Below are positions 260 through 61,187 of a stretch of DNA of 64,000 bases, piece after piece. Source of the DNA: Bacteroidetes bacterium RIFCSPLOWO2_12_FULL_37_12 (GTDB taxonomy: Bacteria > Bacteroidota > Bacteroidia > 2-12-FULL-37-12); the NCBI GenBank assembly GCA_001769655.1, contig MEPC01000020.1, forward strand, positions 217,922 through 281,921. The letters are read 5' to 3'. Position numbers and translations under genes: made by a program. The stretch's first letter is position 1; every line of letters starts with the position of its first letter. A model generated the notes under the pieces. The model searched no databases, was not told the DNA's origin, and saw only the letters and a list, made by a program, of their open reading frames with translations.

Positions 260-1153
260 TTATAATATAAATTTAATTCCAAAATCCCTGGCAAGCAAAT
301 CAAGGTCGTTTTCAAAATATTTCCCGACAATTTTTCGTTCTCCCCCGGTCAGCGGCGGATATTTTTTTTCTACCGTATTCAATTTATAAATAAAAGGAAA
401 TAATCGTGTACGCAGAAAGAGTTTCAATTTAAACGGGATGATATTAGAAATTAATTTTGTAAACGGATTATCGGGGTTATTTATAATCCGGTTTATAAAA
501 GAAAATTTTGAAACGCCGGCGGTATTAAACCGAATGGTGGTGTCAATGCTTACTGAATCATCTACGGAGAGAAATTGGAAAATATTTTTCATTGCTTCTA
601 CGGGCATTTTCTCAAGCAAATCCTGATTTATAATAAGTATGTTTTTCCGTGGAAAGTATTTTAACCAATTTGATAAATGAAGATGATACAGCCCGTGATA
701 AAAGTAAGTTAATTCATGCCGTTCAGTAAAATTGCCGTTCATGCGGTTTTCTTCCAGTTTCATGGTGTCAAGAAAGCTAATCTCCGGGTTTTCCCAGGAA
801 TTTCGAATGGCATATTGATATGCAGAATAAGCACGGCTGACCGGCTCGCGGAGGACTACAATTAATTTTGTTTCCGGGTTATAGGAAAAAACCCGTTCCG
901 GGCATTTCTCATCGGTCAGCATGTGAACATAAGCGGCACCACGAATTTTTGCAGAGTCATTGTTTTCAAAAAAACCATTCAGATATTTCTCGCCCTGGTT
1001 ATAAAAGCGGTCCTGTGTGAAGTAATGCAATTCTTTTACTTTTGCCATTTCCACTCCGGGATGCTGTTCCAGATAGCGGTAAATGGATGTAGTGCCACTT
1101 TTTTGAGCGCCGATTATCCAGAAGGATACGGGGGGATGTTTAGGAGTGTTCAA
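260..1153 (-). CDS. PAPS-dependent sulfotransferase (carbohydrate sulfotransferase family). The longest ORF extends to 1258, but a TTG start at 1153 overlapping the upstream stop (TTGA) is more likely.
   Basis: It carries the 5'-PSB motif 'GAQKSGTT' and the 3'-PB motif 'REPVSRAYSAY'. The ATG at 1258 would overlap the Wzy-like gene by 109 nt in another frame. Confidence 0.8.
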   Translation of the reverse strand: MNTPKHPPVSFWIIGAQKSGTTSIYRYLEQHPGVEMAKVKELHYFTQDRFYNQGEKYLNGFFENNDSAKIRGAAYVHMLTDEKCPERVFSYNPETKLIVVLREPVSRAYSAYQYAIRNSWENPEISFLDTMKLEENRMNGNFTERHELTYFYHGLYHLHLSNWLKYFPRKNILIINQDLLEKMPVEAMKNIFQFLSVDDSVSIDTTIRFNTAGVSKFSFINRIINNPDNPFTKLISNIIPFKLKLFLRTRLFPFIYKLNTVEKKYPPLTGGERKIVGKYFENDLDLLARDFGIKFIL

Positions 1154-4249: not shown

Positions 4250-4316
4250 AATAACTAAGTAAGTATTAAGGATTTTTGGCTACTGTTCAGCCCAATAAAT
4301 GGCAACTACTCGGCAT

Positions 4317-4467
4317 AAAAAAAAGTTCTCACGCAAAGTCGCAAAGAACGCAAAGTAAAAAATCATTAATGATTTTTTTTCTTTGCGTTCTTAATTCTTT
4401 GCGTACTTTGCGCCTTTGCGTGATATAATATTCGCGAGAAATAACACCGGTCTGAGTAGTTTTTTTG
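4317..4467. repeat. About 150-bp structured intergenic repeat (MITE-like), copy 1. It contains the long imperfect hairpin TCACGCAAAGTCGCAAAGAACGCAAAG…CTTTGCGTTCTT…CTTTGCGTGA and terminal inverted ends AACTACTC…GAGTAGTT.
   Basis: A near-identical copy lies at 51654–51800 (about 85% identity over ~145 nt). Both copies are intergenic and in the same orientation. Confidence 0.8.
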
Positions 4468-4479
4468 TGGGATTTAGTG

Positions 4480-5862: not shown

Positions 5863-5870
5863 TATGTTTG
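5863..5870 (+). promoter_or_regulatory. Bacteroidetes -7 promoter box TATGTTTG inside the shared 14-mer ATATATGTTTGTAT. The same 14-mer lies upstream of cysD.
   Basis: Matches the TAnnTTTG consensus of Bacteroidetes sigma-A promoters. An identical 14-mer occurs at 7887–7900 upstream of cysD. Confidence 0.45.
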
Positions 5871-7655
5871 TATTTCATCAGCGGCATCATGGATAAAATT
5901 ATTGTTTCCCTTGTCATTCTTTTTGTTGTAGTATCGCTTTACAAGGAACTATTCCGTCCGGTAGCGACTTTTGTAATTGCTATTGTTGTTCTGCTTTTAT
6001 TCAGAATTCTTTCTCCCAAAGATGTGCTTGCAGGTTTTGCCAACGAGCAGATAGCTGTTATTTTCCTTTTACTTGTGCTGAGTGATGTCATTAAGAAAAC
6101 CGGAGCGCTGGATATTTCAATGAAAAAAATTTTCAAACCCGGTCTTTCTTATCCTTCTTTTATGACAAGAATGTTCGGATCTGTTTCGTTTACTTCTGCC
6201 TGGGTAAACAACACTCCGTTAGTCGCTATCATGATTCCCCATATTTATCAATGGGCAAGGAAATGTAAAATATCGCCTTCAAAAGTTTTGTTGCCTTTGT
6301 CCTACGCGGCTATTCTCGGCGGCACGGTGACATTAGTAGGAACCTCTACCAACCTGGTGGTAAATTCATTGACCGTTGAGGCGCATCTTCCACCCTTAAA
6401 AATGTTTGATTTCACACTCATTGGAATTCCGTTAGTTATCCTCGGAGGACTTTTTTTATTAGTAGCGGGTCATAAGCTATTGCCTGAACGGCATGATTTA
6501 TTATCGGGCTTTTCTGAAAAATCAAGAGAGTACATTACGGAAACGGTTGTGCCTGCCGGTTCGCCCTTAATAGGAAAAAATATTGAAGAAGCCAACCTTC
6601 GTAATCTGAGAGGATTATTTTTGGTAGAAATCATTCGCGATGGAAGACAGATTGTTCCTGTTTCTCCCCGTGAAATAATCCGTCAGAGCGATGAATTGAT
6701 TTTTGCCGGAGAGGTGAATACAATCATTGATTTGGTGAAAGACCCTTCCATTCTTTCACTACCTCAATTTTCAAATCTTCATCCACAGGAAAACATCACC
6801 ATTGTAGATGTGGTTATTTCAACGAATTCAGTTATGAATGGAATGAGTGTGAAAAACACAAATTTCCGTGGAAAATACGATGCGGCAATTGTTGCCATCA
6901 GCAGAAACGGAGAAAAATTATCCGGAAAGATTGGAGACACATTGTTGCAGGCGGGTGATTTGTTATTGCTGGTGGTTGGCAAAGATTTTTATCAGAGAAC
7001 GGAAGGGGTGCAGGATTTTTATATTATTTCGAACGTGCGGGAACTGAATCACATTAATTCTAAAAAAGTATGGTTGATTTTATTATTTACACTCGCCGTT
7101 TTTGTATTGTCTGGTATAGGAATTATTTCCTTGTTTTTCGGATTGTTGATACTGTTAAGCATTTTTGCTTTTTTTAAATTTGTAAAATTAAAAGAAGTAA
7201 AAGAAAATTTAGACCTTCAGCTTCTTTTGATGTTGGTTTTATCGTTGGCATTGGGGAAAGCCATTGAACTATCCGGTACTGCAAATGTGTTAGCAAACAT
7301 GATGATTTCCGTCACTCAATCACTACATAGTCCTGTCATAATATTATTGGGTTTGTTTCTGATAACTCTCATACTGACTAACGTAATAACCCATGCCGCC
7401 GCCGCCGCTGTAATTTTCCCGATAGCGGTTGCCGCGGCGGTTCAACTTGGATTGGATACAAAACCATTTATTCTTGCGGTGGCTTATGCGGCATCCTGCG
7501 GTTTTATGACCCCCTTTAGCTATCAAACCAATTTAATGGTTTACGGTCCAGGCGGATATAAATTTTCAGATTACCTGCATATCGGATTCTGGATGACACT
7601 TATTTCAGTGGTGGTGTGCGTGGGCGGGTTGGGATTGGTGTATGGGTTGTTTTGA
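5868..7655 (+). CDS. DASS/SLC13-family anion permease with two central TrkA-C domains; probably a sulfate transporter. An alternative start MDKII lies at 5889.
   Basis: 595 aa with N- and C-terminal transporter halves, cytoplasmic TrkA-C-like domains in the middle, and a conserved 'TNLMVYGPGGY' end. It sits directly upstream of cysD. Confidence 0.7.
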   Translation: MYFISGIMDKIIVSLVILFVVVSLYKELFRPVATFVIAIVVLLLFRILSPKDVLAGFANEQIAVIFLLLVLSDVIKKTGALDISMKKIFKPGLSYPSFMTRMFGSVSFTSAWVNNTPLVAIMIPHIYQWARKCKISPSKVLLPLSYAAILGGTVTLVGTSTNLVVNSLTVEAHLPPLKMFDFTLIGIPLVILGGLFLLVAGHKLLPERHDLLSGFSEKSREYITETVVPAGSPLIGKNIEEANLRNLRGLFLVEIIRDGRQIVPVSPREIIRQSDELIFAGEVNTIIDLVKDPSILSLPQFSNLHPQENITIVDVVISTNSVMNGMSVKNTNFRGKYDAAIVAISRNGEKLSGKIGDTLLQAGDLLLLVVGKDFYQRTEGVQDFYIISNVRELNHINSKKVWLILLFTLAVFVLSGIGIISLFFGLLILLSIFAFFKFVKLKEVKENLDLQLLLMLVLSLALGKAIELSGTANVLANMMISVTQSLHSPVIILLGLFLITLILTNVITHAAAAAVIFPIAVAAAVQLGLDTKPFILAVAYAASCGFMTPFSYQTNLMVYGPGGYKFSDYLHIGFWMTLISVVVCVGGLGLVYGLF

Positions 7656-7748
7656 GGGGTGACATGACCATCTTAGAAGTTCTGAATATTAAAAAAAATT
7701 GTTACTAATCAGCACATAGCAACTTTTGCTCTAAAAGAACAACACTAT

Positions 7749-7783
7749 ACATATAACACTAAACAAAAAATGTTTAAGTGTTA
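7749..7783. repeat. Palindromic element TAACACTAAACA-N6-TGTTTAAGTGTTA. Positions 7749–7771 form a 23-mer that is repeated exactly, in inverted orientation, at 13644–13666.
   Basis: The 23/23-nt match ACATATAACACTAAACAAAAAAT versus its reverse complement at 13644–13666 was read directly from the sequence. Confidence 0.8.
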
Positions 7784-7889
7784 ATAGATTATTTGGGCTT
7801 TTCATTTAACATTAAATATTTTTTGTTTTATGTTATTTGTTTCTTCTTGCGGCTAATGATATCTTCTGAGCAGTTACAAAAAATTCATA

Positions 7890-7897
7890 TATGTTTG
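7890..7897 (+). promoter_or_regulatory. -7 promoter box TATGTTTG upstream of cysD, about 33 nt before the ATG
   Basis: Matches the TAnnTTTG consensus and sits within the 14-mer shared with the permease upstream region. Confidence 0.45.
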
Positions 7898-7929
7898 TAT
7901 CTTAACTAAACCCACAAAACGCAATCATC

Positions 7930-8835
7930 ATGGTATCCTACAAATTAACCCATCTCCAGGAATTAGAATCCGAATCCATCTTTATAATCCGCGAAGTAGC
8001 CGCACAATTTGAAAGACCTTGTCTTTTATTTTCAGGGGGTAAGGACTCGATTGTTATGGCATATCTGGCTTATAAAGCATTTTATCCGGCTAAAATTCCG
8101 TTCCCATTGGTGCATATTGACACAGGGCACAATTTTCCGGAGACGCTTACATACAGAGATGAATTAGTAAAACGTCTGAACGCAACGTTGCTCGTGGGAT
8201 TAGTTCAGGAGAGCATTGACAAAGGAAGAGCGACAGAAGAAAAGGGCTACAATGCGAGCCGTAATGTATTGCAAACGGTTACTTTATTAGATACCCTTGA
8301 AGCGCATAAATTTGATGCCGCTATGGGAGGAGCGAGAAGGGATGAAGAAAAAGCAAGAGCGAAAGAGCGGTTTTTTTCGCACCGCGATGAATTCGGGCAA
8401 TGGGATCCCAAAAACCAACGTCCGGAACTCTGGAATTTATTCAACGGGAAAAAGAATATCGGAGAGCATTTCCGGGTTTTTCCGTTGAGCAACTGGACGG
8501 AAATGGATATCTGGCAGTACATTGCGTTGAATCAAATTCCGATTCCTTCACTCTATTTCACTCATGAAAGAGATTGTTTTACAAGAGACAACGTGATTTA
8601 TTCTGCATCCGATTGCATGCTCAGGCGACCGGAAGAAAAAATTGAACGCAAGCAGGTGCGATTCAGAACCATAGGGGACATGACTTGCACCGGCGCTGTG
8701 ATTTCAAAAGCCAATTCTCTGGAAGATATTATTCAGGAAGTGGCGGCATCGCGTACTACAGAGAGAGGCACCCGTGCGGATGATAAGCGTTCGGAGACCG
8801 CTATGGAGGATAGAAAAAAGCAGGGGTATTTTTAA
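7930..8835 (+). CDS. cysD: Sulfate adenylyltransferase subunit 2 (CysD; PAPS-reductase-like ATP-PPase fold)
   Basis: 'SGGKDS' PP-loop, 301 aa, strong family resemblance throughout. Confidence 0.9.
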   Translation: MVSYKLTHLQELESESIFIIREVAAQFERPCLLFSGGKDSIVMAYLAYKAFYPAKIPFPLVHIDTGHNFPETLTYRDELVKRLNATLLVGLVQESIDKGRATEEKGYNASRNVLQTVTLLDTLEAHKFDAAMGGARRDEEKARAKERFFSHRDEFGQWDPKNQRPELWNLFNGKKNIGEHFRVFPLSNWTEMDIWQYIALNQIPIPSLYFTHERDCFTRDNVIYSASDCMLRRPEEKIERKQVRFRTIGDMTCTGAVISKANSLEDIIQEVAASRTTERGTRADDKRSETAMEDRKKQGYF

Positions 8836-8918
8836 GAATGAACACTCGTAAACCTGTGTCTGAGGAGTATATATAGAAAATAGAATTGCTCCTACAAATA
8901 GTAATTAACACAAAAAAC

Positions 8919-9764
8919 ATGAATAAAATGGAACAGCAATCAGCCATAAAAATTTTCGAAGAAAAAAAAGTAAGAACTCTGTGGGATGCTGAACAGGAGA
9001 AATGGTATTTATCCATAGTAGATGTGATAGCCGTTTTAACTGAAAGTCCCAATCCAAGAAAGTATTGGAGCGTTCTGAAAACACGATTAAAAGCTGAGGG
9101 AAGCCAGTTGGCTACAAATTGTAGTCAACTGAAAATGCAGTCGGCGGATGGTAAATTTTATCTTACGGATGTAGCCGACACGGAACAACTTTTCAGATTG
9201 ATTCAATCCATTCCATCGCCCAAAGCAGAGCCATTTAAACTTTGGCTTGCACAAGTTGCCTCTGAAAGATTAGATGAAATGCAAGATCCGGAACTCACTA
9301 TTGACAGAGCAATGAAAGAATATTTGCAATTGGGATATTCTGAAAGCTGGATAAATCAGCGGCTGAAAAGCATTGAAATTCGAAAAGAACTGACCGATGA
9401 ATGGAAAAAAAGAGGATTGAAAGAAGGAGTTCAGTTTGCAACGCTTACCGACATTATTACTAAGGCATGGAGTGATAGAACCACAAAAGAATATAAAATT
9501 CTGAAAGGGTTGAAGAAAGAAAATCTTAGAGATAATATGACCAACACCGAATTGATTTTAAACATGCTTGCGGAAGCATCAACCAAAGAAATTTCCTCCG
9601 TGGTTGAACCCAAGGATTTTGACACCAGTATAAAAGTGGCAAAGCAGGGTGGTGATGTCGCTAAAGTAGCAAGGAAAGAATTGGAAGCGCGGACAGGGAA
9701 AAAAGTGGTTACTTCTTTAAATGCAAAAGCTGTTTTGAGTTTGAAAGAGAGACAAGAAAAATAA
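8919..9764 (+). CDS. Bro-N domain protein (DinD / phage-antirepressor-like). The ORF extends from 8886; the likely start is MNKMEQQ at 8919.
   Basis: Bro-N-like N-terminus 'IKIFEEKKVRTLWDAEQEKWYLSIVDVIAVL', DinD-like length, inserted between cysD and cysN. Confidence 0.55.
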   Translation: MNKMEQQSAIKIFEEKKVRTLWDAEQEKWYLSIVDVIAVLTESPNPRKYWSVLKTRLKAEGSQLATNCSQLKMQSADGKFYLTDVADTEQLFRLIQSIPSPKAEPFKLWLAQVASERLDEMQDPELTIDRAMKEYLQLGYSESWINQRLKSIEIRKELTDEWKKRGLKEGVQFATLTDIITKAWSDRTTKEYKILKGLKKENLRDNMTNTELILNMLAEASTKEISSVVEPKDFDTSIKVAKQGGDVAKVARKELEARTGKKVVTSLNAKAVLSLKERQEK

Positions 9765-9787
9765 ATGAATATCGTTTTTGTTGTACT

Positions 9788-10261
9788 ATGAAACCACCCC
9801 AAAACATGAAAAAAAAATCACACCCCTACATCCCATTCCTGCTGGAAGACATAAAAGCCGCCCACCGCAGTTCTGCCGTTGCAAAATTGAACGAGCCGAA
9901 AACCATTGAAGAAGAACTGGAAGAATCGGAGCGTTTTGTTTCTGACGAACGCGAACATACGCTCAGTTATTACTGCGGATTGAAACCGGAGGACTTTCCT
10001 CCTGTAGAACAACTGTCTGATAGAGATATGCAAAAGGTATGCGAAGCGTTTAATACAATGATGGATACGTGGAATTTGTCTGTTGATTTGCCGGAGAATC
10101 TGCCGCCTTCTTTAGCATATCAACTGACGATTGGATTATTAAGTAAAGAGACCTTCATTCCCAATTGTGGGACATTGCATATTGACTTTTGCACGGGCTA
10201 TGCACCGGACTGTGAATTGAAGCAATATTGCCCCTGTCTGAAAATCTGGAACGAAAAATAA
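9788..10261 (+). CDS. Hypothetical Cys-rich protein (157 aa; motif CGTLHIDFCTGYAPDCELKQYCPC)
   Basis: The ORF is open, sits in the same operon position after the Bro-N gene, and I recognise no family for it. Confidence 0.35.
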   Translation: MKPPQNMKKKSHPYIPFLLEDIKAAHRSSAVAKLNEPKTIEEELEESERFVSDEREHTLSYYCGLKPEDFPPVEQLSDRDMQKVCEAFNTMMDTWNLSVDLPENLPPSLAYQLTIGLLSKETFIPNCGTLHIDFCTGYAPDCELKQYCPCLKIWNEK

Positions 10262-10271
10262 CCCACTCAAT

Positions 10272-11957
10272 TTACTTTCTCCTCAAAATCTTTTTTAAAA
10301 CAATCTTCTCAACCCAACTATGAAAAGGATAAATCAAAATCGCAACGCCGGCATTGAAAATTAATTTCCAGACAGGCGCTCCTCCCGTCCATTGCTCTAC
10401 ATAAGGGTCAATCAGCACAATGATAAATTCAAACCATAATAAAATGGATATGAAAATAATGGCTTCAATCAATTTCCGTCCTACATGAATTCGTACCAGT
10501 AAAATGATGGCTGTAAACAATATGACAAAAGCGATGGCAATGCCCGAATACTGAAGAATATTTCGACGGGTTTTTTCTTCCATGGAAATTCTCAATGATT
10601 CTGCTTCCACGCTTTTTTTAATGATTTCTGCTTTTTCATATTCATATTGCGTCTCCAAACGGGCTTGCTTTTTTTCATTATCCTTATTGTAAATACTATC
10701 GCGATATAAAATATAATTCTGATAATTTTCGAATGCCTGTTTGTAATAGTTGCCTCCATTCAGATTATTCAGATTCTTTTCTCCTTTTATTTTAAAAATT
10801 TCAGCGAGGTGTTGAAAGTTATCTTTGCATAGATCCTTACTGCCGATTTCTTTAGCAATGGATAAACTCTTTAAACAAAACTCTTCCGCTTTTTCCAACT
10901 CTTTTTGATTCAAATAAACTAATCCAATATTCCCATACTTATAAGAGATACTTTCTTTGTGACCGATTTCTTCTGCAATCTTCAATCCCTTGTTCAGATA
11001 TTCAAGAGCCAAGGGGTATTTTACTGTCATTGCATAATGATTATTTCCTGCTTTTACAGCGGAGTCACCTTGAAAAACAAAAACTAATCCTATACTACCC
11101 AGCAAAGTTGTGGCGCTATATTGATTTCCCATTTCTTCCGAAATTTTCAATGCTTTCAAAAAATAATTTAATGCCATTGTTAATTTACCTTGCGAAACAT
11201 AGTTCTCTCCCATATTATTAAGGATGATAGCAATTCCATAATTATTTCCGGTTTTCTCAACAAGTTCTAATGATTTGGAATAATAATTAAGGGCAAGCGG
11301 CAAATTTTCCTGCATAGTATAAACATTTCCGATATTACTGTAAATGGATGCGATCAAATCATTATCTTTCAAGACAACGGAAATTTTTAACGCCTGAAAA
11401 TAATAATCCAGCGCTTTTGGATAATTTCCCTGTTTAACCAATACCGCTCCTATGTTGCCCTGAAATCTTGCCATCTTTTGTTTGTCTCCGATTTCCTTAG
11501 ATATTTTTAATGCTTTCTGGAAGTAATTCAGCCCTTTGGTCATGTTCCCTTGCTCTATATAAATAACTCCTATATTCCCGGTTGCCGCGGCTATACCACT
11601 GTTATCAAATAACTGTTCGTAAATTTTTAATGATTGAAATTGAAAAAAAAGCGCAGAATCATAGTTACCTTTTAATCTATAGAATATTCCAAGATTGCTG
11701 TAAATATTTCCCAGCCCTATTAGCCAACGGGCTTTTAGTGCCAAAGCAAGGGCTTGCTTTCCTAATAGGATAGAAGTGTCGGGATTTTTGAACCGAAATG
11801 AAGAGCCGATTGTATTCAGTATATCTGCTTTTTCAGTATCTATACGGGAAATTTTTAATCTGGAAAAAAGGGAATCAATAGTGTCAGCGTTTGAGAAAGT
11901 TGGTAGATTAGGAGAAAATAGTATGCAGAGTAGGAAAATAATCGAATAATTTCTCAT
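10272..11957 (-). CDS. Periplasmic TPR-repeat protein with a coiled coil and the conserved C-terminal 3-TM module (FEF…DPY…GGAPVWK…P-x-H), with no kinase or output domain
   Basis: Signal peptide, more than 8 TPR-like repeats. The C-terminal ~70 aa align with the C-termini of the ORFs at 38700, 16261, 26171 and 31052. Confidence 0.75.
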   Translation of the reverse strand: MRNYSIIFLLCILFSPNLPTFSNADTIDSLFSRLKISRIDTEKADILNTIGSSFRFKNPDTSILLGKQALALALKARWLIGLGNIYSNLGIFYRLKGNYDSALFFQFQSLKIYEQLFDNSGIAAATGNIGVIYIEQGNMTKGLNYFQKALKISKEIGDKQKMARFQGNIGAVLVKQGNYPKALDYYFQALKISVVLKDNDLIASIYSNIGNVYTMQENLPLALNYYSKSLELVEKTGNNYGIAIILNNMGENYVSQGKLTMALNYFLKALKISEEMGNQYSATTLLGSIGLVFVFQGDSAVKAGNNHYAMTVKYPLALEYLNKGLKIAEEIGHKESISYKYGNIGLVYLNQKELEKAEEFCLKSLSIAKEIGSKDLCKDNFQHLAEIFKIKGEKNLNNLNGGNYYKQAFENYQNYILYRDSIYNKDNEKKQARLETQYEYEKAEIIKKSVEAESLRISMEEKTRRNILQYSGIAIAFVILFTAIILLVRIHVGRKLIEAIIFISILLWFEFIIVLIDPYVEQWTGGAPVWKLIFNAGVAILIYPFHSWVEKIVLKKILRRK

Positions 11958-12188
11958 GTACGTTCGGTTTAATTCAGGGGGTTGGTTTTTATAGGATTTC
12001 AGAGCAAAGTTATTGAAAATATATTCAAAGATTTATGTTAAAAGCATTTCGCAATAGAAAAGAAAGTTCTCTTATAAACAGATACCTGAAACTTTACTAT
12101 TTTGACAGTATGTAAGAAGTGATATTTTATCTTTAAATTTGCACGAAACAAAACTATTCCCAAGATTTAACCAAACGCAAATAAGTCC

Positions 12189-13454
12189 TTGCACACCAAC
12201 AAATATCTCGACATGGACCTCCTCCGCTTCACCACTGCAGGAAGCGTAGATGATGGCAAAAGCACGTTAATTGGGCGGTTGCTTTTTGATAGCAAATCCA
12301 TTTTTGAAGACCAACTTGAAGCCGTTGAATCCTCCAGCAAACGAAAAGGATTAGATCACATAGATTTATCCCTGCTGACAGATGGATTAAAGGCAGAACG
12401 CGAACAGGGAATCACCATTGATGTGGCTTACCGGTATTTTGCAACACCCAAACGTAAATTTATTATCGCCGATACTCCTGGGCATATTCAATATACCCGT
12501 AACATGGTGACAGGAGCATCAACCGCTAATCTGGCTATAATTTTAATTGATGCACGGAAAGGTGTTCTTGAACAGACCTGCCGTCATTCGTATATCGCTT
12601 CCCTGTTAAAAATCCCTCATCTGGTGGTCTGCATAAACAAAATGGATCTGGTGGACTACAAAGAAGAAGTATTTGAAAAAATTGTGCACGATTTTGATAA
12701 TTTTTCTTCCAAACTGGAAGTGGTTGATATTAATTATATTCCTATCAGTGCGTTGAAAGGGGACAATGTGGTTGACAAAAGTAAAAACATGGATTGGTAT
12801 CATGGTCAAACCTTGTTGTATTTACTGGAACATATCCATATCGGAAGCGACTATAATCATATTGATTGCCGGTTTCCGGTGCAGTATGTGATACGCCCTC
12901 ATTCAGATGAACATCATGATTACCGGGGGTATGCTGGAAGAATTGCCGGCGGAGTGTTTAGAGTAGCAGACAAAGTAAAAGTTTTACCCGGTGGCTTTAC
13001 TTCAACCATCAAAACCATTGATTTTTTCAACCAGTCATTAAAAGAAGCATACCCTCCCATGTCAGTGACACTAACCCTTTCCGATGACATTGATATCAGC
13101 AGAGGAGACATTATTGTAAGGGAAAATAACGTACCGCAGTTGGGGCAGGACATTGACATGATGATGTGCTGGTTTAATCCCAAGAAAATGAATCCCGCCG
13201 GCAAATATTTTTTGAGACATAACACCAAAGAAGGAAAGTGCATGGTAAAAGAAGTGCGTTATAAAGTGGATATCAATACCATGCAACGCAACGAAACGGA
13301 TAAAGACGTTTGCATGAATGACATTGCCAGGGTGTTAATCAGAACCACTTTCCCCTTGTGTTTTGACAGTTACCGGAAAAACCGTATCACTGGCAGTGTC
13401 ATACTTATGGATGAAGGAACCAATGAGACGGTGGCGGCTGGGATGATTGTTTGA
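12189..13454 (+). CDS. cysN: Sulfate adenylyltransferase subunit 1 (CysN GTPase)
   Basis: G1 box 'GSVDDGKSTLIGRLL', 'DTPGH', 'NKMD', 421 aa. Confidence 0.9.
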   Translation: MHTNKYLDMDLLRFTTAGSVDDGKSTLIGRLLFDSKSIFEDQLEAVESSSKRKGLDHIDLSLLTDGLKAEREQGITIDVAYRYFATPKRKFIIADTPGHIQYTRNMVTGASTANLAIILIDARKGVLEQTCRHSYIASLLKIPHLVVCINKMDLVDYKEEVFEKIVHDFDNFSSKLEVVDINYIPISALKGDNVVDKSKNMDWYHGQTLLYLLEHIHIGSDYNHIDCRFPVQYVIRPHSDEHHDYRGYAGRIAGGVFRVADKVKVLPGGFTSTIKTIDFFNQSLKEAYPPMSVTLTLSDDIDISRGDIIVRENNVPQLGQDIDMMMCWFNPKKMNPAGKYFLRHNTKEGKCMVKEVRYKVDINTMQRNETDKDVCMNDIARVLIRTTFPLCFDSYRKNRITGSVILMDEGTNETVAAGMIV

Positions 13455-13558
13455 GGGAGGGGCAATTCCTTAACCATTTTTTACAGAAGTTTAGCTATAT
13501 TTGCGGTAAGGTTGTGGGAAAATATACTAAAGGTAATCAGGTTTACGAAAAAAATGAA

Positions 13559-13666
13559 TAACACATAACACTAAACACATAACATAAAACACATAACATA
13601 AAATTATAAATGTAATAGAGGTTGAGCACTTAGAAGTTTTTTATTTTTTGTTTAGTGTTATATGTT
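13559..13666. repeat. AT-rich repeat cluster. It has tandem CACATAAC(A) units and the ATAACACTAAACA motif in both orientations. The 23-mer inverted copy of the 7749–7771 element lies at 13644–13666.
   Basis: Read directly from the sequence. Confidence 0.75.
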
Positions 13667-13700
13667 TTTTTAATTCTTAAACCTGAGCGGGTATTTATAG

Positions 13701-13759
13701 AAAATAGTAAATAGAAAATAGTAAATAGAAAATAGTAAATAGAAAATAGCCCCCCCCCC
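13701..13759. repeat. 14-nt tandem repeat (GAAAATAGTAAATA × about 3.6) immediately followed by a C10 homopolymer tract
   Basis: Read directly. C10 is highly atypical in this ~36% GC sequence. Confidence 0.85.
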
Positions 13760-13862
13760 ACTCCCCATGGCTTCATCAGAAAGACGCACCGGATTTACCC
13801 AATTAGTAAAAGAACACGAGCTGTATCCGCAGGAAGCGCCAGCCATGCTAAAAACATCGAAA

Positions 13863-16137: not shown

Positions 16138-16151
16138 TGTGTTTTTTTATA

Positions 16152-16180
16152 GAGACACGGAGCACCGTGTATTATTTTTT
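16152..16180 (+). terminator. Rho-independent terminator-like hairpin (ACACGG-agca-CCGTGT followed by ATTATTTTTT) after the TlpA-like gene
   Basis: GC-rich stem-loop plus T-run, read from the sequence. Confidence 0.5.
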
Positions 16181-16182
16181 AG

Positions 16183-16210
16183 TAGAGACACGGCGCACCG
16201 TGTCTCTACA
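16183..16210. repeat. Perfect 12-bp-stem palindrome GTAGAGACACGG-cgca-CCGTGTCTCTAC. It is related to the palindrome at 46843–46879.
   Basis: Both elements contain the GTAGAGAC/GTCTCTAC inverted pair. Confidence 0.7.
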
Positions 16211-16260
16211 AGAACAAATGTTCTCTATCATACAACTATTTTCATAATCCCGAAATCAAT

Positions 16261-19044: not shown

Positions 19045-19481
19045 AATGTTTTAAAGGGATGCAACGTTGCCTCCTGAATACATTCTACAAGATAAAACTC
19101 CTTTAGTTCTGGAAATGTCCGCAATTGTCGAACAAGAAAAATTGTCTCGGGTAAAATTAACGCATGATTTTTATACAATTTAAAAAAATTCTGAATTTAA
19201 AAAGAAGCGAGAAAAATCTTTGTTTCCGAGAAAGGAAATAATGTTGTACGTTCAGTAGTGATTAGTTACATATATTGTTTATTATGGAAGAATTTATTAT
19301 ATTTGTTAGGTTTTTATTTTTATAGAATTTTATTATTTAAAACACACCTATAAAAAAATTAACACGGACATCTCAATGTTGCAAACAAATAAACAATTAC
19401 ACATCATTGGAGACCAGTGACCAATCAAAAAAACGGGGTGTCCCCGAAAAACCATACGAGTAGGGCTAATATGAAAATGAC

Positions 19482-21851
19482 ATGAAAACTATAAATTTTC
19501 ACTTTTGTACCTTTTTACTGATGTTAATGAGCAACTCCTCTTTTTCTCAATGGACATCTTATAATACTTCAAACTCGGGATTAATGGATAATTACTGCTG
19601 GTACATAGCTGCTGACCCTAAGGGTGATATTTGGGTCAGCACACAATATTCAGGTGCGAACAAATTAACAGATTCAACTTGGATCAACTATACCACTTCT
19701 AACTCCAGTATTGGAGGAAATTTTGTTTGTCCTGTAAATTTTGATAAAAAAGGGAATACATGGATTGGATCAAATGGTGGAGGGCTTTCAAAATTTGATG
19801 GTTCAAATTGGACTGTATATAACACTTCTAATTCCGGTTTACCGAGTAATATTGTTTATAGAATTGAATTTGATGCAAGTGGAAATGTTTGGGTAGGGAC
19901 AAAATTGGGCGGCTTGGCAAAATTTAATGATACCGTTTGGACAGTATATAATACAAGTAATTCGGGTATGGTATCAAATGATGTTAATGCTTTAACTTTT
20001 GACAAAAATGGAAATATTTGGGTGGGTACCCGTTTTGGAGGCCTCACTAAATTTGATGGCAATAGTTCATGGACAAATTATAATACCCTTAATTCACCTA
20101 TTCCAAATGATTCTGTATATTTTCTGAAATATATTTACCAAACAGATATATTATGGGTTGGAACTGTAGGAGGATTAGCTACTTTATCAGATAGTACATG
20201 GGCTATATATACTACTACAAATTCAGGACTACCTCATAATTACATAAGGTCAATTGCTTATTCATATAACGGTGAAGCGTGGATTGCTACAGGTGGTGGT
20301 GGAGTGGCACGATTAGTAGATACAACTTGGACCGTCTATAATACGTCAAATTCAAATCTACCAAGCAATATGGTATGGTCTGTTGCTACCGATATACGGG
20401 AAAAAGTTTGGGTAGCTACCTGGGGCGGCGGCATTGCAAGTATAAATCCATTTGGCGATAGCATTACTGTAATTATTACAAGCGCTGTTGACAATCCGGG
20501 TGATACGATTGAACTCCCAGATGTAGGTGTGGTTATTAACTTTGACTCATCCAGCACAGTGCTTTCCGGAGATGATGGGGTTACAGTTACGCAGTATCTG
20601 GATGGACTGGACAGTACCCAACAACAAACTTCAAGTACAGATTCAGTGGCTACTATCTTCAACAATAGCTACTGGAACATTTTTTCATATTTAGATACGT
20701 TTAATGTTACTGTCTGTTTTAGCTTTGATTCCTCACAATTCAACACTGGTTTTCTTCAATACCTGAGCATGGTCTTTCAGGAAATTCAGGGGGATCCCTG
20801 GCAACTCATAACATCTGTTCCTACAGTTACTGATAGCACAATTTGCTTCACTACAAATCATTGGAGCAACTGGGCATTAGCCATTACAAAATCAGATTCC
20901 AAAATGCAGATTGACACAGTATTTTATAACCAAAATGTTACACCCATTATTTATACAAAAGAATTTTCACAATCCGGAATAACCTTCAAAACAAAATTAA
21001 ATGCAGGAGAAACGGATACTATTTTTGTTGCCCGTTATGATATTAATCCGGGTGGAAATGCACCTGCTGAAATTCAAAGCTATCTAAATACATTCTGGGA
21101 AATTAGAAATCAGAAAAAAGATACAACCGCATTATTTATTGATGCCACTGATATAGAAGGATTTCTTCCTGAACAAAAACAAAATTACGTAGTTTTGAAT
21201 CGTGCCGGAGTTTTTGATGATTGGAAAATCCTTCCTACACTCAGAGTAAAGAGAAATTCAAAAGAAGTTTTGTTTGTACAAAAAGATACCTTGTTTGGTC
21301 AATTTCTTATTGGTGTATCCAGCAAAGTTCAACCTTATTTTACAGATAGCATTGTATTTACTCCTGCTTGTGCCGGTGATAGTATTCTATTCTCATCAGT
21401 TATTGATGGTGGCACTCCTCCTTATACTTATTCCTGGACAGGAGACGTGGGATTAAGTGGCACAACTGAAACCTTAGGTTTTGTATATCCCAACATGGGG
21501 CAATACTCAGTTACATTAAAGGTAGAAGATACCTTTGGTGCTGAAACAGAATATATTTCAACGGTGAATATAGGTTGTACCAACCGAATGGTAGATAATG
21601 TTCCCGGAAAAAATCCTGTATTTTTTCCAAATCCAACTGAAAACGGAATCATGTATTTATCTTTTTCTGGACACGGTTCACATAATATAATAATATCTGT
21701 TTGTGACCTTTTTGGAAGGAAAGTTTATAGTCACACAACAAACCTGTTAGAAAATATCAGGATGAATTTGAGCCACCTAAATTCAGGAAGTTATATAGTT
21801 CATGTAAAAACAAAGGATAAAGAGTACAGAGAGATGGTTAGAGTGAAATGA
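19482..21851 (+). CDS. T9SS-secreted protein with N-terminal Reg_prop-like propeller repeats (NTSNSGL…GNxWxGT), a PKD-like region and a type A Por secretion C-terminal domain
   Basis: Signal peptide. At least 6 'YNTSNSG' repeats. C-terminus 'VFFPNPTENGIMYLSF…GSYIVHVKT…' is typical of the T9SS CTD (TIGR04183-like). Confidence 0.75.
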   Translation: MKTINFHFCTFLLMLMSNSSFSQWTSYNTSNSGLMDNYCWYIAADPKGDIWVSTQYSGANKLTDSTWINYTTSNSSIGGNFVCPVNFDKKGNTWIGSNGGGLSKFDGSNWTVYNTSNSGLPSNIVYRIEFDASGNVWVGTKLGGLAKFNDTVWTVYNTSNSGMVSNDVNALTFDKNGNIWVGTRFGGLTKFDGNSSWTNYNTLNSPIPNDSVYFLKYIYQTDILWVGTVGGLATLSDSTWAIYTTTNSGLPHNYIRSIAYSYNGEAWIATGGGGVARLVDTTWTVYNTSNSNLPSNMVWSVATDIREKVWVATWGGGIASINPFGDSITVIITSAVDNPGDTIELPDVGVVINFDSSSTVLSGDDGVTVTQYLDGLDSTQQQTSSTDSVATIFNNSYWNIFSYLDTFNVTVCFSFDSSQFNTGFLQYLSMVFQEIQGDPWQLITSVPTVTDSTICFTTNHWSNWALAITKSDSKMQIDTVFYNQNVTPIIYTKEFSQSGITFKTKLNAGETDTIFVARYDINPGGNAPAEIQSYLNTFWEIRNQKKDTTALFIDATDIEGFLPEQKQNYVVLNRAGVFDDWKILPTLRVKRNSKEVLFVQKDTLFGQFLIGVSSKVQPYFTDSIVFTPACAGDSILFSSVIDGGTPPYTYSWTGDVGLSGTTETLGFVYPNMGQYSVTLKVEDTFGAETEYISTVNIGCTNRMVDNVPGKNPVFFPNPTENGIMYLSFSGHGSHNIIISVCDLFGRKVYSHTTNLLENIRMNLSHLNSGSYIVHVKTKDKEYREMVRVK

Positions 21852-38597: not shown

Positions 38598-38690
38598 TCA
38601 TGCGAAAGGTATAAAGGTTAAGGGTATAAAGGTATAGATGTATAGGGTATAATGGTTTAACCCCTATACCCCTATACCCATTTTCTTTTA
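38598..38690. promoter_or_regulatory. Array of GGTATA(AAG) direct repeats followed by inverted CCCCTATACC × 2, centred on GGTTTAACC, in a divergent promoter region
   Basis: Read from the sequence. Similar GGGTATAAAG…TATGGTTTAA…GGTATA blocks occur at 53741–53812 and CCTATACCCTATACC occurs at 50827–50841. Confidence 0.6.
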
Positions 38691-40388: not shown

Positions 40389-40437
40389 TCGCTATAGCCA
40401 TCATGTTGAGGATTGGTTTACGCTCTTTCAATAAGAC

Positions 40438-40485
40438 CTCACCCCAGCCCCTCTCCAATAAAATGGAGAGGGGTGAGAAATTTTT
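40438..40485 (+). terminator. Rho-independent terminator: CTCACCCCAGCCCCTCTCCA-ataaaa-TGGAGAGGGGTGAG followed by AAATTTTT
   Basis: 10–14-bp GC-rich stem plus T-run immediately after the TPR gene stop. Confidence 0.7.
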
Positions 40486-41760: not shown

Positions 41761-42966
41761 ATGCTGAAAAACAAAAAAATATTACTTGGCGTTTGTGGAA
41801 GCATAGCCGCCTATAAATCAACCTTGTTACTGCGTGAATTAATTAAAGAAGGCGCAGAAGTAAAAGTAGTTTTTTCACCCTCTGCATCACAATTTGTCAC
41901 TCCTTTAACTTTCTCAACCTTATCTAAAAATCCGGTTTATACCGAGTTTACCGATGCAAAATCCAATGTATGGGTTAATCATGTAGAGCTGGGTTTATGG
42001 GCTGATTATTTCTTGATAGCTCCTGCTACAGCGCGTACTATTTCTAATTTTTCCCACGGAAATTGCGATTCATTATTGTGCGCAGTGTTTCTTTCAGCTC
42101 GGTGTAAAGTGGCATTAGCGCCCGCCATGGACGCTGATATGTTCAACCATTTTTCTACGCAAAAAAACCTGCAATCTCTCAGGGAGCAAGGGATAACGAT
42201 TATACCTCCTGGAACCGGAGAACTTGCGAGTGGATTGACCGGCGAAGGCAGAATGGCTGAACCGGAAGAATTATTGAAATTTTTACAAAACGAGTTCCGC
42301 AAAAGTCCTCTATCAAAAAAAAAAGTTCTGATTACCGCAGGTCCCACTCATGAAGCAATAGATCCAGTTCGTTATCTGGGAAATAATTCAACCGGAACTA
42401 TGGGTTACCGGTTAGCGGAAGTTTTTGCCCGACGAAATTCGAGCGTCACTCTCATAAGCGGACCTGTGTCATTAGAAAAACCAAACGGTAATATCCGATG
42501 CCTGAATGTTGTTTCGGCAGAGGAAATGAAAAATGCTTGTCTTCGTGAATTTCCGGAACAAGACATTGTAATCATGTCAGCGGCGGTAGCTGATTTTAAA
42601 CCTGCTCATTATTCTTCCAATAAAATCAAAAAAAACGAATCGGAAACATTACAACTCACGTTAGTTAAAAATCCGGATATTTTGGCTGAACTAGGCGAAA
42701 AGAAAAAGAAAAATCAGATACTCATAGGTTTCGCGCTTGAATCCGGGAAAAATATTTCTTACGCAAAAGAAAAGTTGAAAAGAAAAAAACTCGATATGCT
42801 TGTTTATAATACCCTGGATGATAAAGGATCCGGATTCGGTAAGTCAACCAATAAAATTACGTTGTTGTTTCCCGATGGGAAGGAAAAATTGTTTCCGTTA
42901 AAGAAAAAAGCTGAAGTGGCGGAGGATATTGCAGATGAGGTGGAGGGGATGGTTAGAAACACTTAA
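41761..42966 (+). CDS. coaBC: Bifunctional phosphopantothenoylcysteine decarboxylase / phosphopantothenate–cysteine ligase
   Basis: N-terminal flavoprotein 'KKILLGVCGSIAAYKSTLLLREL', C-terminal CoaB domain, 401 aa. Confidence 0.9.
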   Translation: MLKNKKILLGVCGSIAAYKSTLLLRELIKEGAEVKVVFSPSASQFVTPLTFSTLSKNPVYTEFTDAKSNVWVNHVELGLWADYFLIAPATARTISNFSHGNCDSLLCAVFLSARCKVALAPAMDADMFNHFSTQKNLQSLREQGITIIPPGTGELASGLTGEGRMAEPEELLKFLQNEFRKSPLSKKKVLITAGPTHEAIDPVRYLGNNSTGTMGYRLAEVFARRNSSVTLISGPVSLEKPNGNIRCLNVVSAEEMKNACLREFPEQDIVIMSAAVADFKPAHYSSNKIKKNESETLQLTLVKNPDILAELGEKKKKNQILIGFALESGKNISYAKEKLKRKKLDMLVYNTLDDKGSGFGKSTNKITLLFPDGKEKLFPLKKKAEVAEDIADEVEGMVRNT

Positions 42967-43010
42967 ACATTTTTTATTAAGTGTTTTATGTTAAGTGTTA
43001 TTCTTTCAGA
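42967..43010. repeat. Palindromic element AACACTTAAACA-ttttttat-TAAGTGTT, a relative of the 7749/13644 motif. It may act as a weak terminator after coaBC.
   Basis: Read from the sequence. Confidence 0.5.
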
Positions 43011-43033
43011 GAAAAAATAGTTGTGTTAAATAG

Positions 43034-46842: not shown

Positions 46843-46879
46843 CCGTGTAGAGACGGGTTTTAAACCCGTCTCTACACGG
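46843..46879 (-). terminator. Perfect 18-bp-stem palindrome CCGTGTAGAGACGGGTTT-ta-AAACCCGTCTCTACACGG. It overlaps the WbaP stop and is followed on the minus strand by TTTAATTGTTTTT. It is a probable intra-operon terminator or attenuator.
   Basis: Read from the sequence. It shares the GTAGAGAC/GTCTCTAC core with the 16183–16210 element. Confidence 0.6.
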
Positions 46880-51604: not shown

Positions 51605-51653
51605 TTATTAGAAATAAATTTAAAAAGAAAAAGTTTTGTAACTATTCAGCATG

Positions 51654-51800
51654 AAAAAAGTTCTCACGCAAAGTCGCGAAGAACGCAAAGAAAAAAGTCA
51701 GTAATGATTTTTTTTCTCTGCGTACTTAATACTTTGCGTACTTTGCGACTTTGCGTGACATAATAATTGCGAAAAAGAATACTCGCCTGAGTTTTTATAA
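51654..51800. repeat. About 150-bp structured intergenic repeat (MITE-like), copy 2 (see 4317–4467)
   Basis: About 85% identical to copy 1 and in the same orientation. Confidence 0.8.
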
Positions 51801-61153: not shown

Positions 61154-61187
61154 TATTATTATTTTTTAGTTACTATTCAGTAACATT

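Follow-up and report, generated by a model that had tools for sequence, protein, structure and literature searches.

Two copies of a small, non-coding palindromic repeat, designated elements A and B, probably account for the inverted repeat that brackets cysD and cysN in the 64,000-nt stretch of DNA analysed here (the window). The 23-mer ACATATAACACTAAACAAAAAAT lies at 7749-7771 on the plus strand within A, and its exact reverse complement lies within B at 13643-13665. We assign a probability of about 0.8 to the reading that each 23-mer is a conserved hairpin arm of an independent copy of one MITE-like family, and that the two form neither a functional pair nor the boundary of a cassette. The MITE family is apparently undescribed, is of a known MITE-like kind and comes from an uncultured Rifle-aquifer Bacteroidota lineage. 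This reading removes a false lead: the cysD..cysN block would be neither a mobile cassette nor a phase-variable segment, and annotation of the sulfated-polysaccharide locus should thus not invoke one. Such repeats break metagenome assemblies, can be mistaken for regulatory sites and may serve as terminators or as substrates for recombination.

The inverted repeat and the cysD-cysN locus

The initial annotation described a perfect 23-bp inverted repeat that was unlikely to have arisen by chance, and both points held. The right copy was placed 1 nt from the position then given (13644-13666), and none of 100 dinucleotide-preserving shuffles matched at ≤3 mismatches. The larger AT-rich palindrome reported around each 23-mer corresponded to ~110-nt local palindromes, whose arms were mapped in A and B, and the weaker relative was recovered at 42969-42991 with 3 mismatches. 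A Pfam search returned the same gene content for the 5.9-kb block (CysD, Bro-N, Cys-rich ORF, TPR and CysN). The genes at the locus were as follows.

5868-7655, plus strand: sulfate/citrate-type transporter gene (CitMHS, TrkA_C and Na_sulph_symp by Pfam), upstream neighbour of A
7930-8835, plus strand: cysD, sulfate adenylyltransferase small subunit (PF01507, E 3e-46; identical protein named CysD by NCBI)
8886-11957, no strand assigned: 3.35-kb insert splitting cysD from cysN, with the Bro-N, Cys-rich ORF and TPR/3TM genes
8886-9764, plus strand: Bro-N protein (PF02498)
9788-10261, plus strand: Cys-rich ORF of 157 aa, no Pfam match
10272-11957, minus strand: TPR/3TM protein, within the cysD-cysN insert
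12189-13454, plus strand: cysN, sulfate adenylyltransferase large subunit, GTPase (PF00009, PF22594)

The 23-mer has a 3-mismatch inverted partner within A itself (7818-7840), and a direct-orientation relative occurs within B (13561-13582, 86%). Because each element is itself palindromic, the long-range inverted repeat follows from the presence of two copies of one family. The 23-mers at A and B are not a unique pair, and the 5.9-kb block is not defined by them.

The order transporter-cysD-cysN was kept in five other loci, with the same transporter upstream of cysD in L023, L040, L072, L077 and L085; the neighbourhood into which A was inserted is thus an old one. The cysN start lies ≤350 nt from the cysD stop in 62 of 77 related loci. 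Neither the closest relatives available (CysD 86% and 76% identical) nor 80 other Bacteroidota carry the elements at their cysDN loci. L003 and L188 were 99.9% identical to the window with zero differences in the elements, a lack of variation that is uninformative on their stability.

Element A and its insertion footprint

Element A lies between the sulfate transporter gene and cysD and consists of the following parts.

7693-7700, no strand assigned: left target-site duplication AAAAAATT, an 8-mer directly outside the left terminal repeat and identical to the right one
7701-7877, plus strand: element A, complete and MITE-like, 177 bp, with terminal repeats and a perfect 8-bp duplication
7701-7712: left terminal repeat GTTACTAATCAG
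7866-7877: right terminal repeat CTGAGCAGTTAC
7878-7885, no strand assigned: right target-site duplication AAAAAATT, an 8-mer directly outside the right terminal repeat

The two 12-bp terminal repeats, GTTACTAATCAG and CTGAGCAGTTAC, are complementary at 9/12 positions, and the hairpin core between them has 38-nt arms (7740-7777 and 7812-7849) that are 79% complementary. The RNA fold of A had an energy of -27.6 kcal/mol (z -4.4), and no ORF of ≥60 aa was present within A or B. The core of A matched a family HMM built without A (48 bits, E 4e-13), and 7699-7778 was 91% identical to L103:2994-3073, including a non-palindromic subterminal sequence (7699-7748) conserved at 91%. As A is bounded by terminal inverted repeats and an 8-bp duplication of its own, it was inserted independently, and to judge from its sequence it looks like a transposition product. 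The terminal repeats and the duplication are the trace that cut-and-paste transposition leaves when a DDE-type enzyme acts in trans. The pre-insertion site would have read ...GAATATTAAAAAAAATTCATATATGTTTG... with one AAAAAATT.

This footprint bears on the proposal that the 23-mers mark the inverted termini of a composite transposon, or of an acquired cassette, through which the PAPS-synthesis genes arrived. Inverted copies of one repeat do flank a block with foreign-looking genes (Bro-N and the Cys-rich ORF); however, these genes lie between cysD and cysN and not at the block edges, and the GC content shows no step at the block boundaries. A composite transposon has transposase-coding flanks and a duplication around the whole unit, whereas the flanking elements here are 170-180 bp, encode nothing and are thus unable to supply a transposase. 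The duplication surrounds A alone, with AAAAAATT on both sides, and the sequences outside B, TTATAGAA and TAGAAAAT, do not match. Furthermore, the synteny comparison called for in the initial annotation showed that the transporter-cysD adjacency cut by A is conserved in the five other Bacteroidota loci. A cassette, as proposed in that annotation, is hence highly improbable.

Elements B and C

Two further copies of the family were found in the window.

~13524-13697, minus strand (opposite to A): element B, full-length family copy with arms at 13557-13590 and 13636-13669; boundaries approximate
42960-43010, minus strand: element C, truncated copy of the core with one arm and a short hairpin, between convergent genes

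Element B, of ~174 bp, lies between cysN and an alanine dehydrogenase gene. Its arms are 34 nt long and 82% complementary, one of them being lengthened by tandem 7/14-nt units, and its long outer inverted ends read ...GGTAATCAGGTTTACG and CTTAAACCTGAGCGGGTAT. The stem is preceded by A7 and followed by T7, and the minus-strand RNA folded at -25.7 kcal/mol (z -3.9). B aligned end to end with the copies in L101, L107 and L139, and 13588-13687 was 86% identical to L139:3233-3330. When target duplications were sought by eye at several possible boundaries of these B-type copies (L101, L139, L107 and B), no matching flanks were found. A 'TA' flank at B-type copies was not separable from the AT-rich background. 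Element C contains the 3-mismatch match to the 23-mer, is 86% identical at 42962-43026 to L103:3009-3073 and folded at -12.9 kcal/mol (z -3.9).

Dispersal of the family

The metagenome scan used the 21-mer arm pattern CAWATAACAYWAAACAAAAAA as query. In the Ga0156225 assembly, it returned at least 13 matches with full palindromic structure on 6 contigs; as these copies were retrieved with the 21-mer, that arm's conservation is in part a product of ascertainment. The scan found further copies in Hainich groundwater contigs and in L169, and nhmmer added more diverged copies, including 3 in L155, a 14.5-kb groundwater contig. In the source genome, 3 family copies were present in the 83 kb read, with no additional family-1 copies in 19 kb of further source contig, and high copy number was seen in the other organism instead. 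Every copy was intergenic, often 0-30 nt from a stop or start codon and in either orientation to its neighbours. At least 2-3 different organisms carry the family in multiple dispersed copies, always between genes.

These features agree with those of MITEs. A (177 bp) and B (~174 bp) are non-coding and fall within the range of 50-800 bp, and dispersed copies are numerous (at least 13 in Ga0156225, 3 in L155 and 3 in 83 kb of the source genome). Terminal inverted repeats and target-site duplications were found at A and at the sister-family copies in L139 and L163, with no convincing duplication at B. The probability that two of three copies fall within 6 kb by chance in 83 kb is roughly 0.37 (our own calculation), and the proximity of A and B is thus not evidence of linkage.

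An exact 23-mer scan of species-representative genomes gave no match, the source species or its repeats not being represented there. Rfam gave no match to A, B or C, whether the whole window was searched at gathering thresholds or 7600-13850 at E ≤5, and blastn of A and B against plasmid and phage collections gave none. Scans of IMG/VR with the arm pattern and the end pattern returned 10 loci, all chance or coding matches without a partner arm. An RNAalifold consensus on 13 copies was in the wrong register (-2.3 kcal/mol), the arms being imperfect; covariation was dropped as evidence because of these imperfect arms and because the copies had been picked through one arm.

The genes beside the copies, coding for cytidine deaminase, NuoH, peptidases, an ABC transporter and a T9SS protein, are unrelated to sulfur metabolism. 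A multi-copy repeat without a tie to the block, which the initial annotation had rightly named as the refuting outcome, counts against the headline reading of that annotation, as well as against its suggestion of paired operators, in which a transcription factor would bind TAACACTAAACA half-sites flanking the cys genes, co-regulating them or looping the DNA. The half-sites are palindromic and are located upstream of cysD and downstream of cysN. However, in another genome this sequence lies beside genes of unrelated function, copies occur at gene 3' ends as often as at 5' ends and in both orientations, and the motif is missing from the cysDN loci of the 80 other Bacteroidota and the nearest relatives. 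Moreover, with the three elements set aside, the window showed no significant enrichment of the TAACACTAAACA half-site (18 matches versus 9.3 expected, most of them inside the elements). We consider it very unlikely that the repeats are operators of the cys genes.

Gene-end hairpins accompanied by A and T runs, such as the A7-stem-T7 of B, might also be ordinary intrinsic terminators that evolved in place and are alike by convergence, but we regard this as scarcely credible. Elements at unrelated loci and in different organisms share 86-98% nucleotide identity, the conserved sequence includes the non-palindromic subterminal part of A (91% in L103), and terminal repeats with target duplications are present, all of which argue against convergence.

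Orientation of the cysD..cysN segment

Phase variation is frequent at polysaccharide clusters in Bacteroides, and the invertible capsule segments of that genus are promoters of ~0.2-0.5 kb whose inversion depends on a serine or tyrosine recombinase. A perfect 23-bp inverted repeat with copies 5.9 kb apart within a polysaccharide cluster could thus suggest that a site-specific recombinase flips or removes cysD..cysN, as in the promoter and shufflon inversions of Bacteroides, which likewise involve 10-30 bp inverted repeats in Bacteroidota polysaccharide loci. In contrast to those systems, the segment here would comprise 5.9 kb of whole genes, whose flipping would not act as an evident on/off switch, and the repeat exists in multiple copies, recurring at 42969 and at numerous unrelated loci. 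Neither a Pfam domain of a recombinase or transposase nor a cognate tyrosine or serine recombinase was found among window ORFs of ≥150 aa or called genes of the 19-kb flanks. The four independent assemblies spanning both repeats (L001, L002, L003 and L188) were all collinear with the window, a weak test, since assemblies report the majority form and a rare A-B inversion would be compatible with them. With the insertion footprint of A also speaking against it, the invertible or excisable segment of the initial annotation is most improbable, and its interpretation as a whole is partly supported.

Sister families with the same terminal motif

The hairpin cores of at least two sister families are unrelated, but these families have the terminal motif GTWACnnnTCAG and the 8-bp duplication in common; they are represented in the window by the following copies (no strand assigned).

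4302-4474: sister family 2 ('CGCAAAG' hairpin core), arms 4329-4355 and 4397-4423, degenerate ends GCAACTACTCGG ... CTGAGTAGTT
51638-51798: sister family 2, second copy, left end GTAACTATTCAG, arms 51664-51698 and 51724-51758
118-253: sister family 3 ('CACTGATTA' hairpin core), arms 144-170 and 197-223, right end CTGAACAGTTAC at 242-253

A relative of the family 2 copy at 4302-4474, L139:1352-1449, has 12-bp terminal repeats that are perfect (12/12) and carries the 8-bp duplication AATTATTG on both sides. The family 3 copy is 87% identical over 155 nt to L163:6281-6434, where the element (6257 to ~6417) has both terminal repeats (9/12 complementary) and TATATTTC on both sides. Strict terminal-repeat pairs occurred only twice in the 2.09 Mb searched, at A and at L139:1352-1449, both with 8/8 duplications. 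Per 100 kb, the terminal motif was found 9.4 times in the window and 6.3 times in the Ga0156225 loci, versus 1.0 in 1.3 Mb of other Bacteroidota loci. An outer motif shared by all hairpins was considered and rejected, as strict motif pairs occur in the window only at A; it survives only for families 1A, 2 and 3.

The 'ACATATAACACTAAAC' core is present in at least three different shells. It is conceivable, though we put this forward tentatively, that the window and Ga0156225 hold a modular MITE superfamily, in which the shared 12-bp end GTWACnnnTCAG and the 8-bp duplication are combined with interchangeable long hairpin cores (~7-nt tandem units, A/T runs), these cores acting in both directions as portable terminators or insulators that a single transposase disperses. 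If so, the passage of cores from shell to shell and among groundwater Bacteroidota would amount to a separate mode of spreading transcription boundaries, and inverted copies like A and B could occasionally recombine, flipping cysD..cysN.

Comparison with REP/REPIN elements

REP elements, another option in the initial annotation, are multi-copy extragenic palindromes at gene ends with several families per genome, as seen here, and their inverted doublets form ~100-nt hairpins (PMC6006769, PMC3733652). The long palindromes (B and the shared core) could be REP/REPIN doublets spread by a RAYT (Y1 HUH) and A a DDE-type MITE shell with a captured core, which we judge unlikely. B-type copies are long hairpins tight at gene ends with no detectable target duplication, and GTAG-tagged REP-like hairpins occur in the window at 16177-16214 and 46846-46876. 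Hairpin-flanked RAYT-like genes are common in related Bacteroidota, and the B-type outer stem CAGGTTT...AAACCTG resembles the hairpins that flank them; RAYT subclasses of Bacteroidetes have been reported with 'atypical' secondary structures (PMC6006769).

Against this, the GT[AG]G or CGTC tag is absent at the ends of A, B and the aligned copies, and no RAYT gene was picked up by tblastn, with three RAYT-like proteins as queries, in the window, its flanks and the Ga0156225 loci, which are a small part of either genome. The elements here also differ from REPs in their terminal repeats, and 8-bp duplications are carried by A and the two sister families. To our knowledge, Y1 transposition (IS200/IS605) makes no 8-bp duplications. 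Insertion without duplication, as expected of REPs, is compatible with B but not with A.

Proposed scenario and relation to known MITEs

We propose the following scenario for the MITE-like family. One copy (A) would have landed between the sulfate transporter gene and cysD, and B separately, in the opposite orientation, beyond cysN. The mobilising enzyme may be an IS66-like transposase, since the ends begin GTAA and an 8-bp duplication is present, both stated hallmarks of IS66. According to PMC11946415 (citing Ross et al. 2021), IS66 ends begin GTAA(GCG) with an 8-bp direct repeat, and members are placed in Bacteroidetes/Chlorobi. The 8-bp duplication was seen in 3/3 cases here, but the ends are GTAAC/GTTAC inverted repeats of ~12 bp, unlike the 20-30-bp ends of IS66, which start GTAAGCG. 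No pair of matching ends 0.4-4 kb apart was found in 2.09 Mb as an autonomous partner, so that the IS66 assignment is based on two hallmarks, and no IS66-type transposase (DDE_Tnp_IS66) was present among window ORFs or called genes in the 19-kb flanks, or in the other sequences examined. The link to IS66 may be taken as a lead, not as membership.

After insertion, the hairpin with its flanking A/T runs is predicted to act as a transcription terminator, insulator or 3'-end stabiliser; such a role would explain the tolerance of copies packed tightly between genes. A consensus terminator scan did not flag the AT-rich stems. The arms may lengthen or shorten by slippage of ~7-nt units, as in B.

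Correia elements (CREE) of Neisseria are intergenic palindromic MITEs of ~100-150 bp that can supply terminators, promoters and RNA-processing hairpins; they differ from the present family in duplicating TA, in their unrelated 26-bp ends and in belonging to a different phylum. The MITEs of Porphyromonas gingivalis (BrickBuilt, MITE464/PgRS, MITE239 and MITE700) have shared ends, unlike interiors and tandem repeats forming stem-loops (PMC4596501). They resemble the present family in their Bacteroidota host, in being non-coding and exclusively intergenic, in a copy number of roughly 10-20 per genome and in similar 12-bp terminal repeats (PMC4596501). However, their ends, of the GAGACCTTTGCA type, match the IS5 family and their duplications are short or variable, whereas the present family, which has no sequence similarity to them, is shorter (about 100-180 bp) and has GTWACnnnTCAG ends with a constant 8-bp duplication.

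Structure and dispersal of the repeat

The 23-mer ACATATAACACTAAACAAAAAAT lies on the plus strand at 7749-7771 and its exact reverse complement at 13643-13665, one base to the left of the position in the initial annotation. None of 100 dinucleotide-preserving shuffles contained any 23-mer match, even with up to three mismatches, and the inverted repeat is not a product of chance. The exact copies each form one arm of a local palindrome, and relatives with three mismatches lie at 7818-7840 (within copy A, on the opposite strand) and 42969-42991. The initial annotation was thus correct in regarding the repeat as real, non-random and embedded in larger palindromes, and its account of the genes between the copies also held. 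The copies of this repeat, termed family 1, have the following features in the window.

Features of family-1 copies A, B and C
7693-7700 and 7878-7885: AAAAAATT, duplication flanking A, the same 8-mer on both sides
7701-7712: left end of A, GTTACTAATCAG
7740-7777 / 7812-7849: hairpin arms of A, 38 nt, 79% complementary
7866-7877: right end of A, CTGAGCAGTTAC
~13524-13697, minus strand: B, full family-1 copy
13557-13590 / 13636-13669: hairpin arms of B, 34 nt, 82% complementary
42960-43010: C, truncated family-1 copy

The arms consist of units of about 7 nt (ACACTAT ACATATA ACACTAA ACAAAAA), and extra 14-nt units lengthen one arm of B. Predicted RNA folds reached -27.6 kcal/mol for A on the plus strand (z -4.4 vs shuffles), and -25.7 and -20.1 kcal/mol for B on the minus and plus strands, respectively (z -3.9 and -1.7).

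The exact 23-mer had no match in species-representative genomes. When metagenomes were scanned with the degenerate arm CAWATAACAYWAAACAAAAAA, 102 loci matched, mostly by chance in AT-rich DNA; the whole palindromic structure was present in 13 matches on six contigs of the metagenome assembly Ga0156225 (GC 0.36-0.39) and in matches on three other contigs, two of them from Hainich groundwater. Searching with a nine-copy profile added further, diverged copies, including three inside the 14.5-kb contig L155. The full consensus is a hairpin of about 165-175 nt (TACCAAACCnACTCAGGTTTTAGAAAAAAA-ACATATAACACTAAACAAAAAATGAATAAT-loop-ATTAATTATTTTTTGTTATATGTTATTCA-TTTTTTTCGGAAACCTGTTTACCTTTGGTA); A carries the same core as B in a different 'shell', and 7699-7778, its left flank, shows 91% identity to L103:2994-3073. 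Every copy lies between genes, often with the stop or start codon of a neighbour 0-30 nt away, and copies occur in both orientations relative to the adjoining genes. These genes encode cytidine deaminase, NuoH, peptidases M3 and S15, an ABC transporter and a T9SS protein; none is related to sulfur metabolism, and the operator or regulon reading was therefore removed. The window and the loci bearing family 1 have only small repeats in common (86-98% identity), with no gene-level DNA similarity. Family 1 was absent from 80 related cysD loci, was likewise missing around cysDN in the closest relatives found (CysD 86% and 76% identical), and had no match in Rfam, plasmids, phages or IMG/VR.

Insertion footprint and mode of mobility

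The window holds other long intergenic hairpins whose arms are likewise short tandem units, and two of these families carry A's kind of end.

Sister families in the window
4302-4474 and 51638-51798: family 2 ('CGCAAAG')
118-253: family 3

In L139 (1352-1449), a complete family-2 copy is bounded by perfect 12-bp ends, GTAACTATTCAG, and flanked by the duplication AATTATTG; in L163 (6257 to about 6417), a complete family-3 copy is flanked by the duplication TATATTTC. The strict end pair within 4 kb occurred only twice in the 2.09 Mb searched, both times with an 8/8 duplication, for which we estimate a chance probability of ~3e-5 in this base composition. The density of the end motif (per 100 kb) was 9.4 for the window, 6.3 for the Ga0156225 loci and 1.0 for other Bacteroidota loci (1.3 Mb), a six- to nine-fold enrichment. 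B-type copies had no convincing target duplication.

The repeat is a palindromic, non-coding element that recurs between genes in multiple copies and has terminal repeats and an 8-bp duplication. A and its sister families carry the characteristic footprint of MITEs, non-autonomous elements that undergo cut-and-paste transposition in trans. The hallmarks of IS66, which has members in Bacteroidetes, are ends starting GTAA and 8-bp duplications (PMC11946415); on this partial match, an IS66-like transposase is a candidate for mobilising the elements. The nearest described analogues are the MITEs of P. gingivalis, comprising several families with common 12-bp ends, differing interiors and stem-loop-forming tandem repeats (PMC4596501); they resemble the present elements in their common ends and differing interiors but differ in the ends themselves, the related IS family (IS5) and size.

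A serious partial alternative treats the long palindromes as REPIN-like elements mobilised by a RAYT. GTAG-tagged REP-like hairpins lie within the window (16177-16214 and 46846-46876), RAYT-like genes with flanking hairpins are common in related genomes, and atypical structures have been reported for Bacteroidetes RAYT subclasses (PMC6006769). However, no RAYT gene was found in the window, its flanks or the Ga0156225 loci, and the 8-bp duplications of A and the sister families are at odds with Y1 transposition. The GTAG...CTAC-tagged hairpins lie just 3' of genes (16144-16214, GTAGAGACACGG-CGCA-CCGTGTCTCTAC; 46843-46879, CCGTGTAGAGACGGGTTT-T-AAACCCGTCTCTACACGG), and L155 has one of this type directly beside a family-1 copy; these hairpins suggest that a RAYT/REP system is also present in this lineage. 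Four related Bacteroidota MAGs carry a RAYT-like gene between REP hairpins, e.g. CCCTGTCAGGGTTTnnAACCCTGACAGGG, at ~7400-8350 (L010, L015, L018 and L020); it is encoded on the strand opposite to cysD, ~1.8 kb upstream.

Once inserted, the MITE-like elements may act as terminators or insulators, as predicted from A7 before and T7 after the stem of B and a U-run after the stems of families 2 and 3 on the strand of the upstream gene; the AT-rich stems went undetected in a consensus terminator scan. Just past A's right duplication lies a TAnnTTTG box (TATGTTTG, 7890-7897), which we take to be a promoter by the Bacteroidetes consensus; cysD thus probably keeps its own promoter.

Including families 2 and 3, tandem-unit hairpins (CGCAAAG, CACTGATTA and GGTATAG units) lie at 4302-4474, 51638-51798, 118-253, 38631-38678 and 40428-40478, and most such repeats have 82-98% identical counterparts in Ga0156225 contigs. 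A solitary palindrome at 61169, GTTACTATTCAGTAAC, looks like two abutted ends. In both A-type copies, a right-end-like sequence plus 8 bp precedes the left end (window 7680-7700, CTGAATATTA-AAAAAATT-GTTAC; L103:2985-3007, CTGAGCAGGTGC-AAATTTTT-GTAAC), which could stem from insertion beside an older end or represent a tandem or circle junction.

The cysD-cysN block

The initial annotation proposed that the pair brackets the 5.9-kb cysD-cysN block as a cassette or invertible segment, or consists of paired operator/REP elements. The dispersed copies, A's own duplication and the conserved transporter-cysD-cysN order leave the bracketing readings unsupported; 'REP elements' alone comes close. This gene order also occurs in five other loci (L023, L040, L072, L077 and L085), and A therefore lies inside an old neighbourhood, not at a cassette edge. 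The 8-mer flanking A is not found again beyond B, so the block as a whole lacks a duplication, and GC content shows no step at the block. With three copies in 83 kb, we calculate a chance of ~0.37 that two lie 6 kb apart, which is unremarkable.

Contigs from Rifle-aquifer metagenomes are identical to the window, and the identical CysD protein is listed at NCBI under 'Bacteroidetes bacterium RIFCSPLOWO2_12_FULL_37_...'. Four assemblies (L001, L002, L003 and L188) span both repeats, collinear with the window and 99.86-100% identical, the differences in L003 being mostly N runs, and A and B are unchanged in all four; as assemblies display the majority form, this single orientation is weak evidence against inversion. 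No recombinase or transposase domain was found in window ORFs of at least 150 aa (64 kb) or among the genes predicted in a further 19 kb of flanking sequence.

The cysN start lies at most 350 nt from cysD in 62 of the 77 related loci with both genes. Here the gap is 3.35 kb (8836-12188) and holds genes for a Bro-N protein, a Cys-rich ORF and, reading on the opposite strand, a TPR/3TM protein, an insertion inside the block that is unrelated to the repeats. Other gaps above 1 kb occur only in L026 (3.3 kb), L029 (1.9 kb) and L051 (1.7 kb). A break at window 9104/9105, within the Bro-N gene, is shared by two independent assemblies and hints at repeated or variable sequence there.

Other features of the locus

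The Cys-rich ORF (9788-10261, 157 aa) has 58 homologues and no Pfam or NCBIfam match. In both other genomes examined (L196:5900-9200 and L197:5900-9800), the homologue is followed immediately downstream by a gene for a RAYT-like Y1 transposase (NCBIfam NF047646, E about 1e-17, under the curated cut-off), with REP-like hairpins between and around the pair, inside a CRISPR-Cas locus. The order in L196 is Cas9, Cys-rich homologue, RAYT-like gene, Cas1, second RAYT-like gene and Cas2; in L197 (Gracilimonas), the pair lies between Cas3 and Cas4/Cas1/Cas2. The family may represent an accessory partner, as yet undescribed, of either RAYT-like genes or CRISPR adaptation modules.

At 13697-13759, four perfect copies of the 14-nt tandem repeat ATAGAAAATAGTAA immediately precede a C10 homopolymer, 7 nt ahead of the annotated ATG of an alanine dehydrogenase ORF; both are slippage-prone and lie in the promoter or 5' region. 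A DUF805 RNA motif (19402-19470; Rfam RF03081, 69.9 bits, E 8e-11) precedes the ORF at 19482-21851. The whole window is a polysaccharide-synthesis cluster that includes genes for its own sulfation supply, and it also encodes Wzx, many glycosyltransferases, four paralogous Reg_prop/Y_Y_Y proteins and T9SS cargo proteins.

Sulfation and export genes in the window
260-1153: sulfotransferase
5868-7655: sulfate transporter
44093-46798: Wza-like exporter
53134-53727: cysC, 40 kb from cysDN
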